Of a stretch of DNA of 4,830 nucleotides, positions 1-4,217 are shown piece after piece. Each line of letters starts with the position of its first letter. Within the stretch, counting starts at the first letter, position 1. A model generated the notes under the pieces. It was given only the letters and a program-made list of their open reading frames with translations. It did not search any database and was not told the origin of the DNA. This stretch comes from a virus (Duplodnaviria > Heunggongvirae > Uroviricota > Caudoviricetes): the IMG/VR virus record IMGVR_UViG_2563366878_000014; one strand, written 5' to 3'. A program made the position numbers and the translations under genes.

Positions 1-1287
1 GATTCACTGGATATGATTACGGGCTTTTCGCCGTCATATAAAAAAATTGTTATTGGTGATGATGAAATAACGATGCCTGGCGACAAGGTTGTTAAGTTTA
101 AACGCGCATCAACTGCCACATATATCAATAAATCAGGCGTATTTAGTGTTGCTAAAATTGATGAGCCACGATTTGAAAAAGAAGGTTTATTGATTGAAGG
201 ACAGCGCACTAACTATTTTGTTAAATCCAATACTCCCGCTGAATGGACGAGTACCAGCAATATCGATAAAACTAATAATGGTGTTGATGAATTTGGTTTT
301 TCATATGCCAAAATGCGAACAAAAGATAATATGACAGGACAATCATCTGCACTTAGTCTGCATACATGCAGTGCATCCCGGGGGATTGATGTTAGTGGCG
401 ATAATAAGTATTGCACTGTTTCATGCAGGGTTAAAGCTCCTGATGGTCTTCGTTGTCGTTTGCGTTTTGAAAAATACGATGGGTCGGTTTATACATTTTT
501 AGGAGATGCTTATTTAACTTTCGGAACTCTGATAATAGAAAAAACTGGCGGAGCAGCCAATAGAATAGCAGCTACTGCAACTAAAGATCCGGTTACAGGG
601 TGGATTTTCTATGAGGCAACTATAGAAGCTGTTGAAGGTGAAACCTTAATTGGCGCAATGATTCAGTATGCGCCGAAAAAAGGTGGTATAACTGAAGCGG
701 GAGATTATATTTACCTTGCAACACCACAATTTGAAAACGGCGGATGTGCTTCATCTTTTGTTATTACGACAACTGCACCCGCAACCCGCTCCAGTGATAT
801 GGTGACGATCCCAACTGAAAATAATATCTATAATAGACCGCTTACGTGTCTTGTCGAGGTTAATAGAAATTGGGGCGATATTCCTCCTAATGTAGCACCG
901 CGTATTTTTGATTTTTCTGGTGTGCCACCTATTGAGTCAATTACATACGCTTTTAACACAACTGAGAAATATTACGGTCAGCTTTATATGCAAACTTATA
1001 AAGCGTCGACAAGTACTTACGTTTCTAGTGTGTTTGCTGGTCGAACTGATGTTCGAAAATTCATTGGTGGTTTTAATATTTATTCTGATGGTACTAAACG
1101 AGTAGTTTCTAACGGTGAGGCTACTAAAACTATGAAAACGGAGTGGACGGGCGTAAAAACACGGACCTTTATTCGAATTGGAGGTCAAGCCACATCGGGA
1201 ACTCGTCATCTATTCGGCCATTTGAGAAATCTTCGTCTCTGGCATAAAGAATTAACTGATGCGCAAATGGGGGAGAGTATTAAATGA
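1..1287 (+). CDS. Tail fibre / receptor-binding protein, C-terminal part (5'-partial; frame open from base 1, 428 codons in window). C-terminus looks like a lectin-type jelly-roll (LamG/ConA-like) domain.
   Basis: Frame 1 has no stop from base 1 to TGA at 1285-1287. The first ATG at 13 has no room for an RBS, so the gene most likely starts upstream of the window. C-terminal motif ...GTRHLFGHLRNLRLWHKELTDAQM matches my recollection of the typical end of LamG-like jelly-roll domains in phage fibre tips. N-terminal window segment RASTATYINKSG...DEPRF...GLLIEGQRTNY resembles the start of a second such domain (weaker). Genomic context is tail fibre (Tfa remnant and Pin recombinase downstream). Confidence 0.75.
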   Translation, partial: DSLDMITGFSPSYKKIVIGDDEITMPGDKVVKFKRASTATYINKSGVFSVAKIDEPRFEKEGLLIEGQRTNYFVKSNTPAEWTSTSNIDKTNNGVDEFGFSYAKMRTKDNMTGQSSALSLHTCSASRGIDVSGDNKYCTVSCRVKAPDGLRCRLRFEKYDGSVYTFLGDAYLTFGTLIIEKTGGAANRIAATATKDPVTGWIFYEATIEAVEGETLIGAMIQYAPKKGGITEAGDYIYLATPQFENGGCASSFVITTTAPATRSSDMVTIPTENNIYNRPLTCLVEVNRNWGDIPPNVAPRIFDFSGVPPIESITYAFNTTEKYYGQLYMQTYKASTSTYVSSVFAGRTDVRKFIGGFNIYSDGTKRVVSNGEATKTMKTEWTGVKTRTFIRIGGQATSGTRHLFGHLRNLRLWHKELTDAQMGESIK

Positions 1288-1673
1288 AAGATTTAACACT
1301 CAAATTTGCAGACAGGGTCGACTTTTCGGCCTTTATGGAGAGCATTGGCTATTATGATGACGAGTCGATGCAGGATGATATTCTTATTGACGTGATAGGT
1401 AATGTGTACAAAGAAACCGGAGAACTTACTGAAGATGGCGAGCCGGTATGTGTTAAGGAGGACGGATATTTTGTAAATGTGCGCATCATTAATGATTCGC
1501 AAATATCGTCATTATTCGATGAACACGCGGTTGCTGTTGAGCATCAACTCCGTAGCTGGATGTGAGGAAGAAAAATGGCTACATCGACAGTAATTCCTGA
1601 TGACATCAAAACGCTAAAGGGAGATGTCAGTAAGGCAAAGGAAGATATTTCCTCAATTAACGTAAAAGTATCA
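858..1673. repeat. Tandem duplication unit 1 (816 bp), identical to 1674-2489.
   Basis: Checked line by line against 1674-2489 and found no mismatch. Identical ORF pairs in the supplied track are offset by exactly 816 bp (908/1724, 937/1753, 1284/2100). Confidence 0.95.
1284..1565 (+). CDS. Hypothetical acidic 93-aa protein, translationally coupled to the fibre gene; candidate fibre accessory/chaperone (copy 1).
   Basis: ATG at 1284 overlaps the fibre stop (ATGA). SD-like GGGGGAGAG lies 7-8 nt upstream. The protein is D/E-rich. No family recognised from memory. Confidence 0.65.
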   Translation: MKDLTLKFADRVDFSAFMESIGYYDDESMQDDILIDVIGNVYKETGELTEDGEPVCVKEDGYFVNVRIINDSQISSLFDEHAVAVEHQLRSWM

Positions 1674-1679
1674 GGTTAA
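1575..1679 (+). pseudogene. Truncated N-terminal fragment (34 codons) of the 234-aa gene, created by the duplication junction.
   Basis: Same RBS (GAGGAAG) and ATG as the 2391 gene. Reads MATSTVIPDDIKTLKGDVSKAKEDISSINVKVS, then the junction adds G and TAA at 1677-1679. Confidence 0.7.
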
Positions 1680-2103
1680 TAGAAATTGGGGCGATATTCC
1701 TCCTAATGTAGCACCGCGTATTTTTGATTTTTCTGGTGTGCCACCTATTGAGTCAATTACATACGCTTTTAACACAACTGAGAAATATTACGGTCAGCTT
1801 TATATGCAAACTTATAAAGCGTCGACAAGTACTTACGTTTCTAGTGTGTTTGCTGGTCGAACTGATGTTCGAAAATTCATTGGTGGTTTTAATATTTATT
1901 CTGATGGTACTAAACGAGTAGTTTCTAACGGTGAGGCTACTAAAACTATGAAAACGGAGTGGACGGGCGTAAAAACACGGACCTTTATTCGAATTGGAGG
2001 TCAAGCCACATCGGGAACTCGTCATCTATTCGGCCATTTGAGAAATCTTCGTCTCTGGCATAAAGAATTAACTGATGCGCAAATGGGGGAGAGTATTAAA
2101 TGA
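1674..2103 (+). pseudogene. Duplicated 3' fragment of the fibre gene (last ~143 codons, including the lectin-like C-terminus) with no proper start or RBS.
   Basis: Identical to 858-1287. The frame opens only after TAA at 1663-1665. There is no ATG with an SD; the ORF track start at 1738 is an internal GTG. Confidence 0.7.
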
Positions 2104-2381
2104 AAGATTTAACACTCAAATTTGCAGACAGGGTCGACTTTTCGGCCTTTATGGAGAGCATTGGCTATTATGATGACGAGTCGATGCAGGATGATATTCT
2201 TATTGACGTGATAGGTAATGTGTACAAAGAAACCGGAGAACTTACTGAAGATGGCGAGCCGGTATGTGTTAAGGAGGACGGATATTTTGTAAATGTGCGC
2301 ATCATTAATGATTCGCAAATATCGTCATTATTCGATGAACACGCGGTTGCTGTTGAGCATCAACTCCGTAGCTGGATGTGA
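2100..2381 (+). CDS. Hypothetical acidic 93-aa protein (copy 2, identical to 1284-1565).
   Basis: Identical sequence with the same RBS, carried inside the duplicated fibre fragment. It could be expressed by read-through transcription. Confidence 0.6.
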   Translation: MKDLTLKFADRVDFSAFMESIGYYDDESMQDDILIDVIGNVYKETGELTEDGEPVCVKEDGYFVNVRIINDSQISSLFDEHAVAVEHQLRSWM

Positions 2382-2390
2382 GGAAGAAAA

Positions 2391-3095
2391 ATGGCTACAT
2401 CGACAGTAATTCCTGATGACATCAAAACGCTAAAGGGAGATGTCAGTAAGGCAAAGGAAGATATTTCCTCAATTAACGTAAAAGTATCAACGCTTCAGAC
2501 TGATATGGACAGTGCAAAGCAGGATATCAGTACCAGATACACAAAAACAGAAGTGGATAATAAGCTGAAAAACAAAGTGGAAGTGAACGATCTGGAAAGT
2601 GGTCGTTATGGCGGAGATTTTTACCCGCTGACTGGCCGTGAAGCGTTTTATTTATGGGGATTGGGCACAACTACAGCGGCGGCAAATCTTTATCTTAATC
2701 CTGACCCTGCAATTTCGTCTGTGCTGCGGTCAACATCGTCTATCCGCTATAAACATTCAGTAGAGACGATAGATTCAGAGCACGCCGATCTCATTTTCAG
2801 GATGCGCCCTGTGTGGTACAGGTCGCAATGCGAAAATGACAGGCGTGACTGGGGATTCTATGGATTGATTGCCGAGGAAGTAGGAGAAATTGCCCCTCAG
2901 TTTGTTCACTGGCGACCAGCCAACGAAGATGATGCACCGGAAACCATTTCCAGCAATGGCCTTGTTGCCGAAGGTGTAATGTACGAACGTCTGGTTGTTC
3001 CACTGATTCACCATATCCAGAAACTGACTGAAAGAGTTGATGAACTTGAGTCAGAATTGAAGTTGTTATCAACTTCCCAAAGCGATATCGGATAA
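2391..3095 (+). CDS. 234-aa fibre-like protein: N-terminal coiled-coil-like region plus C-terminal domain resembling the phage intramolecular chaperone (Peptidase S74-like) domain.
   Basis: Strong RBS GAGGAAG 5 nt before the ATG. C-terminal motifs LIFRMRPVWYR, GLIAEEVGEIAPQFV and VMYERLVVPLIHHIQKLTERVDELESEL match my recollection of the S74 chaperone-domain consensus (LRPVxY / GxIAQEV..P / Y..LVPLL..IKEL). Confidence 0.8.
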   Translation: MATSTVIPDDIKTLKGDVSKAKEDISSINVKVSTLQTDMDSAKQDISTRYTKTEVDNKLKNKVEVNDLESGRYGGDFYPLTGREAFYLWGLGTTTAAANLYLNPDPAISSVLRSTSSIRYKHSVETIDSEHADLIFRMRPVWYRSQCENDRRDWGFYGLIAEEVGEIAPQFVHWRPANEDDAPETISSNGLVAEGVMYERLVVPLIHHIQKLTERVDELESELKLLSTSQSDIG

Positions 3096-3105
3096 AGGAG
3101 GAGTA

Positions 3106-3399
3106 ATGGATATAACACCTTTTCTTCATGCGCTTTGTGCTGTGGCTGCGCAGGTAATGATTGGTCTTTTTACCGGAAACTGGGTTTACGGGGCGATAGC
3201 CGGTTGTACGTTCTTCATTGCGCGTGAACACACCCAGGCAGAATATCGCTGGATTGAAATGTTCGGGCATGGCAAGCGGATTAACATGCCGTGGTGGGGC
3301 GGTTTTGATCCGCGTGTTTGGGATGTGGCAAGCCTGATAGATTTTGCTGTGCCGGTGGTGGCGTGTCTGCTGGTCTGGCTGTTGGTTAATCGTGGGTGA
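3106..3399 (+). CDS. 97-aa small predicted inner-membrane protein (2-3 hydrophobic helices), hypothetical; possible moron.
   Basis: Strong RBS AAGGAGG 4-5 nt before the ATG. Hydrophobic stretches FLHALCAVAAQVMIGLFTG, WVYGAIAGCTFFIA and VASLIDFAVPVVACLLVWLLV. Spot-checked lines are GC-richer than the upstream genes. Confidence 0.7.
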   Translation: MDITPFLHALCAVAAQVMIGLFTGNWVYGAIAGCTFFIAREHTQAEYRWIEMFGHGKRINMPWWGGFDPRVWDVASLIDFAVPVVACLLVWLLVNRG

Positions 3400-3409
3400 A
3401 AAAAGGTGA

Positions 3410-3529
3410 GCTGTATATGCAACGGAGGAAGAAACCCCGTTGCTGGAAGCCTGGAAAAAGTATCGGGTGTTGCTGAACCGTGTTGATACGTCAACTGCAC
3501 AGGATATTGAATGGCCAGCACTGCCGTAG
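3410..3529 (+). pseudogene. tfa: 3' remnant of a tail fibre assembly (Tfa-family) gene: conserved C-terminal 39 codons only.
   Basis: Frame 2 reads [39 protein letters not shown] then TAG, the C-terminal signature I recall for lambda Tfa / Mu U / P2 G-type proteins. An in-frame TGA at 3407-3409 sits immediately upstream and there is no start or RBS. Confidence 0.75.
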
Positions 3530-3605
3530 GGTAAAACATATAAATTCTATAATTAGATGTATCTTTCCATTTACGGCAAGGAAGGGGGCTTGGAAGACGT
3601 AAAGC

Positions 3606-3628
3606 ATCTCACACCGAGATTATTTTTT
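3606..3628 (+). terminator. Weak candidate intrinsic terminator for the + strand gene string (5-bp stem ATCTC/GAGAT, then TATTTTTT).
   Basis: Hairpin 3606-3620 followed by a T-run at 3621-3628. The stem is short and AT-rich, and the site overlaps the recombinase stop on the other strand. Confidence 0.25.
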
Positions 3629-4217
3629 ATATGTCAGGTGTCTGAAGTTTTGCTTTGGCTCTTAAAATGGTTTGCCGCGAGGTTTTGAATTCCCGGGCAA
3701 TGGCACTTATACTTACACCTGACTTAATTCGTTCGAATACCACCTGTTTCTGTTCTTCATTTAACACAGGTGGTCGACCAAAACGTTTCCCTGCGCCCCG
3801 GGCTCTTACTATCCCGGAATGAGTGCGTTCAAGTAAAAGGTCTCGTTCAAATTCAGCGACTGCTGAAATTACTTGCATCATCATTTTTCCTGTTGGACTG
3901 GTCAGGTCAATGCCCCCCAATGCTAAGCAATGCACTCTGATACCTGTTTCGGTCAGTTGTTCCACTGTTTTCCTGATATCCATTGCATTACAACCAAGGC
4001 GATCCAGTTTTGTCACAATCAATTGATCACCACATTTCAGGCGAGCAAGCAACCGGTTAAAACCAGGACGCTCACTGGTTGCTGCTGAGCCGCTAATGTG
4101 TTCTTCGATTATTTGCTGAGGTTTGATTTTAAAACCTGCACTTTCGATTTCCCGGCGTTGATTTTCGGTGGTCTGATCCAGAGTTGATATCCGACAGTAA
4201 GCAAAAATTCGAGACAT
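3627..4217 (-). CDS. pinR: Small serine recombinase, DNA invertase/resolvase family (Pin-like), 196 aa.
   Basis: N-terminal YCRISTLDQ with the catalytic Ser, central LDRLGCN...[16 protein letters not shown], and C-terminal GRPP plus helix-turn-helix are hallmarks of the Hin/Gin/Pin and resolvase family. Length and sequence match my recollection of E. coli prophage PinR/PinQ; I cannot tell those two apart without a search. Convergent with the tail-fibre genes. Confidence 0.93.

Follow-up and report, generated by a model that had tools for sequence, protein, structure and literature searches.

Side and lateral tail fibres set which O-antigen types a phage reaches, and they are the parts that are swapped to retarget lambda-derived particles and therapeutic phages. 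The systems closest to the locus described here are the Tfa-type chaperones (lambda Tfa, Mu U and P2 G; Caudo_TAP), whose genes lie directly behind the fibre gene and are co-expressed with it, and which usually vary with the fibre tip that they fold. Other fibres, such as the K1F endosialidase and T5 pb1, carry a Peptidase_S74 domain, which is a self-cleaving C-terminal domain of the fibre itself. T4 gp57A is a small, acidic, cytoplasmic protein linked to fibre assembly; it is all-helical, is encoded at a separate locus and serves several fibres. In T2-type phages, the gp38 gene lies directly behind the fibre gene. A different class is formed by connectors: gp35 and gp36 are small connector proteins of the T4 long tail fibre, and DT57C has LtfA and LtfB. 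Two-part fibres of T5-like phages have been documented (PMC4728585, PMC10713586). In DT57C, LtfB is joined to LtfA, no small ORF has been reported between them, and both fibres are S74-ended (PMC4728585, PMC10713586).

Here we describe a gene for an acidic 93-aa protein that follows a lectin-headed fibre gene in a window of 4,830 nt (the whole stretch of DNA analysed, from IMG/VR record IMGVR_UViG_2563366878_000014). Like the genes of Tfa-type chaperones, it lies directly behind a fibre gene and is co-expressed with it. It is also present where there is no intact Tfa, and is plausibly needed for the C-terminal end of the fibre. Unlike Tfa-type proteins, its product is half the size, has no sequence similarity to them, has a different predicted fold, does not vary with the fibre tip, and has as its partner a LamG-type head rather than a Stf/gp37-type tip. 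In the fibre alleles of Vequintavirinae it occupies a distal place equivalent to that of the S74 domain, but it is a separate polypeptide and not a self-cleaving C-terminal domain, with no similarity to S74 in sequence or fold. Like gp57A, the 93-aa protein is small and acidic and would be a cytoplasmic protein linked to fibre assembly, but in contrast to gp57A it is predicted to be alpha/beta and belongs with one fibre gene. As with gp35/gp36 and LtfA/LtfB, there is a position between proximal and distal fibre genes and conservation of both sides of the junction. There is no homology to these connectors, however, and the 93-aa family is kept in single-fibre phages.

Results

Gene content of the window

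The window represents the side-tail-fibre region of a lambdoid E. coli prophage, at its right-hand end. Two pieces of it, each 100% identical, align to the chromosome of E. coli isolate F344 (NZ_OY754421) and cover only 4,014 bases of that record; the other 816 bases are accounted for by a tandem duplication (see below). Phage PhiR49_1 carries the same module at 99.5% identity. The natural locus, as annotated in F344, runs from J (tail tip protein) through Lom, a 799-aa fibre ("prophage tail fiber N-terminal domain-containing protein"), the 93-aa protein, a 234-aa fibre ("tail fiber domain-containing protein") and a 97-aa protein. These are followed by a Tfa pseudogene without its N-terminus, a PinQ/PinR-type recombinase and ydfK, and then by the bacterial genes prfC and osmY.

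The first feature of the window (1-1287, plus strand, in frame from base 1) is the 3' part, 428 codons, of the 799-aa side tail fibre, which we call fibre A; its 5' end lies outside the window. It matches PHROG 1419, "tail protein", with E = 1.4e-197, contains the NCBIfam domain GTA_spike_fiber (E = 1.6e-15) and, in its last 63 residues, has a weak match to Pfam Laminin_G_3 (E = 0.0016, under the curated cut-off). These matches agree with the description of the upstream gene in the earlier note as a lectin-like fibre. In IrisVonRoten, the homologous head domain has been termed "galectin-like" (PMC11990801). The last 27 residues of fibre A hold a conserved motif, RHLFGHLRNLRLWHKELTDAQMGESIK, that is kept in 14 diverse phages and seven distant metagenomic loci. 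The fibre ending in the 14 phages follows the pattern R/K-H/L-L/M-F/Y-G/A-H-x-R/K-N/D-x-R-x-W-x-x-x-L-T/N-D-x-Q, and in the seven metagenomic loci it has either the same pattern or a more generic LamG ending.

The gene for the 93-aa protein occupies positions 1284-1565 on the plus strand (ATG start, 93 codons, TGA stop; PHROG 1361), which are the coordinates originally proposed for it. Its ATG (1284-1286) overlaps the fibre A stop codon TGA (1285-1287) in the form ATGA. A Shine-Dalgarno-like sequence, GGGGGAGAG (1269-1277, plus strand), lies within the last codons of fibre A, with its GGAG ending 8 nt upstream of the ATG, and purine-rich counterparts (AAGGAG, GGGGGAA and AAGGAA) are found at the same site in other phages. 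Hence, both the stop-start overlap and the ribosome-binding site inside the fibre 3' end that had been noticed earlier are present, and the coupling is kept at every related locus inspected. The protein is indeed acidic, with a pI of 4.11 and 21 Asp and Glu residues versus seven Lys and Arg residues. We also considered a programmed frameshift that would fuse fibre A to the 93-aa protein. This was rejected: there is no canonical slippery heptamer, and the 1-nt overlap or short gaps of relatives use other frames.

The 93-aa ORF is a real gene under purifying selection. It represents more than a chance ORF, since the PHROG 1361 profile matches it over its full length (E = 1.2e-44; residues 1-93 against profile positions 1-92 of 92), a word-indexed search found 227 related protein clusters, and dN/dS is ~0.19 across 39 distinct alleles. 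Among these alleles, the variable sites at codon positions 1, 2 and 3 number 11, 14 and 26, respectively. In the RefSeq annotation of the identical locus, the protein (WP_000654154) is described only as "hypothetical".

Four further features complete the layout. Fibre B (2391-3095, plus strand), the 234-aa short fibre, opens with the conserved peptide MATSTVIPDDIKTLK. It also has a coiled coil, and its residues 116-172 form an intramolecular chaperone domain of the Peptidase_S74 type. Fibre B is followed by the gene for a predicted membrane protein of 97 aa (3106-3399, plus strand), a member of the function-unknown family PHROG 1443, which trails the fibre module in lambdoid phages with or without fibre B. 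A remnant of a Tfa-type assembly gene (3419-3529, plus strand), comprising the C-terminal 36 codons only according to the RefSeq annotation of the identical locus, adjoins a PinQ/PinR-type serine DNA invertase (3627-4217, minus strand; supported by the ORF, profile matches and RefSeq annotation).

The 93-aa ORF is present twice in the window because of an exact tandem duplication of 816 bp, in which 857-1673 (unit 1) is identical to 1673-2489 (unit 2) and the units, to which no strand is assigned, have base 1673 in common. Copy 1 of the 93-aa gene is coupled to full-length fibre A. Behind it, fibre B is reduced to a stump of 34 codons (1575-1679, plus strand; MATSTVIPDDIKTLKGDVSKAKEDISSINVKVSG and then a stop), cut short at the duplication junction. 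Unit 2 contains the last 143 codons of fibre A without a start, the identical second copy of the 93-aa gene (2100-2381, plus strand) and the true 5' end of fibre B. Copy 2 therefore has a start-less fibre A fragment upstream and intact fibre B, starting 9 nt past it, downstream; it corresponds to the sole copy in the unduplicated natural locus. The duplication junction was not found in 5,426 complete E. coli genomes, GTDB species representatives, IMG/VR or JGI metagenome contigs, and hence the duplication either is private to this sequence or arose through misassembly or artificial editing. With the duplication collapsed, one base differs from F344: position 1318 is T rather than C, which changes Ala12 of the 93-aa protein to Val. 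The nature of the 93-aa gene is unaffected by the duplication. Neither the tandem duplication nor the second copy of the gene had been recorded in the earlier note.

Sequence and fold of the 93-aa protein

A Pfam scan of the 93-aa protein gave no match at E <= 1, and an NCBIfam scan gave none at E <= 0.01. When 24 family members were compared with Pfam, none matched Tfa (Caudo_TAP), and the only matches were to nine unrelated families, one member each, with a best E of 0.047. The 93-aa protein has no match to Peptidase_S74 either; the S74 domain of the window belongs to the next gene, at 2391-3095. The view that this is not a Tfa is therefore upheld, and the Tfa C-terminal signature of the window sits in the remnant at 3419-3529. 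An exhaustive profile search of 1.84 billion representative proteins recovered 55 clusters only, all of them of proteins of up to 150 aa, with no fusion of the family to a larger protein among them.

The quality of the structural model depended on the alignment. A shallow alignment of 27 sequences (81-98% identity) gave an AlphaFold monomer model with a pLDDT of 56, and a deeper alignment raised this to a confident 87.2. The predicted fold runs in the order strand, helix, short helix, long beta-hairpin, short helix and final strand. Foldseek found no significant match in the PDB (best E = 0.031, TM <= 0.44); the best matches were generic alpha/beta folds with a long hairpin, for example those of the NusG N-terminal domain, ribosomal protein S10 and PII. 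Only uncharacterised phage proteins were matched in BFVD, and phmmer and profile searches of PDB sequences yielded no informative relative. One profile match to a PDB sequence, Tetrahymena p19 (E = 0.004), was judged to be due to chance. Profile and structure-based searches of this kind had been suggested as a way in which an unrelated family might lay claim to the protein, and none did. The family stands alone as PHROG 1361, which is annotated as function-unknown, with a predicted alpha/beta fold that matches nothing characterised.

Linkage to the lectin-headed fibre end

A tblastn search with the 93-aa protein recovered homologues from 183 phage records. Six lineages are represented: lambdoid temperate phages, Drexlerviridae, Dhillonvirus, Queuovirinae, T5-like Markadamsvirinae and rV5-like Vequintavirinae. 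With the LamG-type fibre end (last 140 residues) as the query, 203 records were found, and their breakdown by organism was the same. Two of the additional LamG-end records were checked, those of AKFV33 and BRET, and both have a divergent 88-aa member of the family in the same position.

The gene order is equally consistent. In 21 of 21 diverse loci (14 from phages and seven metagenomic), a gene of the 93-aa family lies directly behind a LamG-ended fibre gene, and the seven metagenomic relatives have this arrangement at only 23-33% identity to the 93-aa protein. The stop codon of the fibre gene and the small gene either overlap by 4 or 1 nt or are separated by 0-3 nt, except for a spacing of 46 nt in one distant metagenomic locus. 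The complete genome of PhiR40_1 has this fibre and the small gene, with neither Tfa nor a second fibre. Together, these comparisons of gene neighbourhoods show an obligate linkage of the small gene to the LamG-ended fibre, without dependence on a second fibre, and they establish a functional link between the 93-aa family and the lectin-headed fibre end that is both tight and ancient.

The gene occurs in 987 of 5,426 complete E. coli genomes (18%), with up to five copies per genome. Among GTDB species representatives, a search with a narrow alignment, which recovers only relatives that are at least 90% identical, found it only in Escherichia and in one contig binned as Collinsella.

The rV5-like phages provide a natural exchange at the fibre end. 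Gp41 of rV5 and gp26 of CarlMeissner are 91% identical over residues 1-1049. Beyond residue 1049, the rV5 protein has an S74 chaperone-type end and no small gene, whereas the CarlMeissner protein has a head module of ~420 aa and is followed by the small gene. This head module is 36% identical to residues 363-799 of fibre A of the window (E = 5e-76), and the same terminator lies downstream of either end. In these phages, the lectin head and the small gene thus behave as a cassette that is swapped for a built-in chaperone end. EmilHeitz also has the small gene. According to a tail-fibre atlas preprint, the lectin-like head of the rV5-like RBP_10 (EmilHeitz) replaces the S74 domain of its relatives, which cryo-EM is said to confirm; the small protein is neither mentioned nor assigned in the preprint.

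Fibre B and the conserved junction

In most siphovirus contexts, another gene begins 9-12 nt past the small gene. The first ~22 residues of its product, fibre B, are conserved (M-x-T-x-T-x-I-P-x-D-I-x-x-L-K) and common to lambdoid, T1-like, T5-like, Dhillonvirus and Nonagvirus phages. The remainder varies in length between 166 and 579 aa, often with no relationship from one phage to the next, and the domain after the fibre B N-terminus is attached to different N-termini in other phages. An unbiased IMG/VR scan with a DNA pattern for the fibre B N-terminus found at least 116 genes, mostly in E. coli prophages, and among the matches listed the small gene was directly upstream in 116 of 116.

Fibre B is nevertheless dispensable for retention of the small gene, which is intact where fibre B is absent, in Vequintavirinae, in lambdoid phages ev203, 4A7 and PhiR40_1, and in two metagenomic loci. 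In Vequintavirinae, 33 of the 41 matching records have a protein at least 95% identical to the CarlMeissner small protein. In the lambdoid members that lack fibre B, the small protein retains the residues that are conserved across siphovirus members.

Comparison of the window with 2G7b or PhiR63_1 brings out the contrast between the junction and the parts around it. Identity is 96% for the small protein, 78% for the last 27 residues of fibre A and 91% for the first 22 residues of fibre B, but it falls to 30% in the head (residues -140 to -27) and to 25% in the remainder of fibre B. Furthermore, across 83 close loci the same small-protein allele occurs with different types of fibre A and fibre B, and no co-variation of the variable patch of the small protein with the type of either fibre was seen. 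With high identity at the junction, low identity in the outer fibre parts, and this mixing of alleles, the small gene lies at the centre of a conserved junction between exchangeable modules. Rank correlations of pairwise identity favoured the fibre A end (rho 0.76) but are confounded by physical linkage, and we therefore give them no weight.

Discussion

What is the function of the 93-aa protein? Some kind of fibre accessory role is very probable. The earlier note had suggested a different class of fibre accessory protein, acting in place of Tfa. The lack of likeness to Tfa stands, and comparative genomics ties the small gene tightly to lectin-headed fibres; physical binding, chaperone activity, any Tfa replacement and any place in the virion are matters of inference.

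We estimate a probability of roughly 0.5 that the protein is a dedicated accessory of lectin-headed lateral or side fibres, either as a trans-acting assembly factor or as a cap over the C-terminal head segment that is conserved. It would be made in step with fibre A by virtue of the stop-start overlap, and its target would be the final ~27 residues of the head, a conserved segment that is kept while other parts of the head diverge. Most likely it would be a trans-acting assembly factor, and for the lectin-type end the counterpart of Tfa or of the built-in S74 domain elsewhere; it may also remain bound as a cap. We favour an assembly factor or cap because the lectin head and small gene are exchanged against a built-in chaperone domain, because the small gene persists in single-fibre phages, and because there is no intact Tfa, which in the prophage of the window is present as a remnant only. 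Three points count against an assembly factor. LamG beta-sandwich domains generally fold without help. The small protein does not co-vary with the head when 2G7b and PhiR63_1 are compared with the window, as would be usual for a chaperone of the Tfa type. Lastly, the block formed by the last 27 aa of fibre A, the small protein and the first 22 aa of fibre B resembles a structural joint.

Such a joint is the main rival to an assembly factor, and it is a possible though more doubtful explanation. The 93-aa protein would sit as an adaptor on the head of proximal fibre A in the virion and provide a socket for the N-terminal peptide of distal fibre B. It is a serious alternative to a chaperone because the small gene is followed by a second fibre gene whose product has a conserved N-terminus. 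The gene order (proximal fibre, small gene, distal fibre), the conserved 9-12 nt spacer ahead of fibre B, and the constant presence of the small gene directly before the fibre B-type N-terminus in the IMG/VR matches listed are all as expected for a joint. So are the conservation of that N-terminus across five phage groups in proteins that are otherwise ~25% identical, the attachment of the following domain to other N-termini in other phages, and the 96% identity of the small protein where both flanking fibre domains have been exchanged. Indeed, in a published model of the IrisVonRoten fibres, Gp24 is a T-shaped distal fibre mounted on the proximal fibre Gp22, and the small Gp23 is neither assigned nor discussed in that study (PMC11990801). 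On the other hand, since the small gene is kept in phages without fibre B (Vequintavirinae, PhiR40_1, ev203, 4A7 and two metagenomic loci), docking of fibre B is not its sole role. Moreover, the conserved end of fibre A could equally be the docking site of fibre B. In its broadest form, this explanation would make the protein a universal joint: a trimer that caps lectin-headed proximal fibres and receives a short, conserved N-terminal peptide, such that distal fibres are plug-and-play across lambdoid, T1-like, T5-like, Dhillonvirus and Nonagvirus phages, and the conserved block doubles as a recombination linker. We regard this proposal as tentative. An assembly factor and a structural joint are not mutually exclusive.

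Published work provides little with which to choose between them. The 93-aa protein has no assignment in the papers on DT57C, in both BASEL papers, in the tail-fibre atlas, in the AKFV33 proteomics or in the lambda-vector preprint, and a literature search with identifiers of the protein and its family found nothing. The AKFV33 study is the sole virion proteomics that we found for a phage bearing the module; only four gel bands were analysed, and it is therefore silent on a 10-kDa protein.

The remaining explanations are unlikely. One is that the 93-aa protein is a mere passenger of the fibre operon with a role unrelated to the fibre, such as that of a moron, a regulator or an anti-defence protein. 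The protein has no domain match and the same operon encodes the 97-aa membrane protein of a function-unknown family, which would fit a passenger. However, position and coupling are shared by phages of six lineages, whether temperate or strictly lytic, and by relatives of 23-33% identity, and the small gene travels with the head module in the swap between rV5 and CarlMeissner, all of which makes a passenger improbable. The other is a gp38-like adhesin, a small fibre-tip protein that itself touches the receptor: the gene lies directly behind a fibre gene, as gp38 does, and residues 72-77 vary among close relatives (SQISSL, VKTPSI, AKKSLI, TGVSSM), but the protein is far more conserved than the neighbouring receptor-binding parts, one allele goes with different heads and different distal fibres, dN/dS is as low as 0.19, and Pfam, PHROG and Foldseek (PDB and BFVD) searches found no similarity to gp38 or any adhesin family.

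Fibre chaperones and connectors are already known; what would be new is an unrelated family that plays this part for a single, widespread type of fibre end. Whether as assembly factor or as joint, the 93-aa protein would add to the fibre accessory proteins a family that is related to Tfa, gp38, gp57A and S74 neither in sequence nor in fold. If the fibre needs the small gene, chimeras with a lectin-headed donor fibre would be expected to fail unless the small gene is transferred as well. If, instead, the protein is a joint, it would define a portable docking interface for distal fibres. The small gene is present in many phages that are used for host-range work.

A tandem duplication within the fibre module

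The window contains an exact tandem duplication of 816 bp (857-2489), with 1 nt of microhomology at its junction. The duplicated segment comprises the 3ʹ end of fibre A (the side tail fibre with a lectin-like head), the gene for the acidic 93-aa protein (hereafter, the small gene), and the start of fibre B, the second fibre gene, through codon 33. Besides the duplication, base 1318 is the sole difference between the window and the corresponding locus of E. coli isolate F344. We did not find the duplication junction in 5,426 complete E. coli genomes, GTDB representatives, IMG/VR, or JGI metagenomes.

Each copy of the small gene includes a 28-nt imperfect palindrome with TTAA at its centre (1477-1504 and 2293-2320). 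The palindrome falls within VNVRIIND, the motif that is best conserved in this gene, and probably represents a chance occurrence.

Fibre B and the genes downstream

Fibre B (2391-3095) is a putative distal fibre of 234 aa, in which residues 116-172 form a self-cleaving S74 chaperone domain. Given the position of this domain, mature fibre B would be only ~115 residues long, with a docking peptide followed by a coiled coil and a short tip. The fibre B homologue in KarlJaspers is annotated as a “putative lateral tail fiber chaperone”.

Located 3ʹ of the fibre module is a gene for a predicted membrane protein of 97 aa (PHROG 1443; 3106-3399), with a possible role in lysogenic conversion or exclusion. 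In lambdoid phages, this gene occupies the same position whether or not a second fibre is present (PhiR49_1, PhiR63_1, 4A7, ev203 and PhiR40_1). Further downstream, at 3419-4217, a C-terminal remnant of Tfa (36 codons) adjoins an intact PinQ/PinR-type invertase gene. Together, these look like what is left of an invertible Stf/Tfa host-range switch that was displaced by the lectin-head fibre module.

Related loci

In phage 4A7 (2417-4833 of that locus), most of the fibre head has been replaced by an insertion sequence with three transposase ORFs, leaving only the last ~46 codons of the head, immediately 5ʹ of an intact small gene. JAGZNZ010000051.1, a 2.8-kb contig binned in a “Collinsella sp.” MAG, carries a small-gene copy with 90% identity; this contig is almost certainly a piece of an E. 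coli prophage that was mis-binned.
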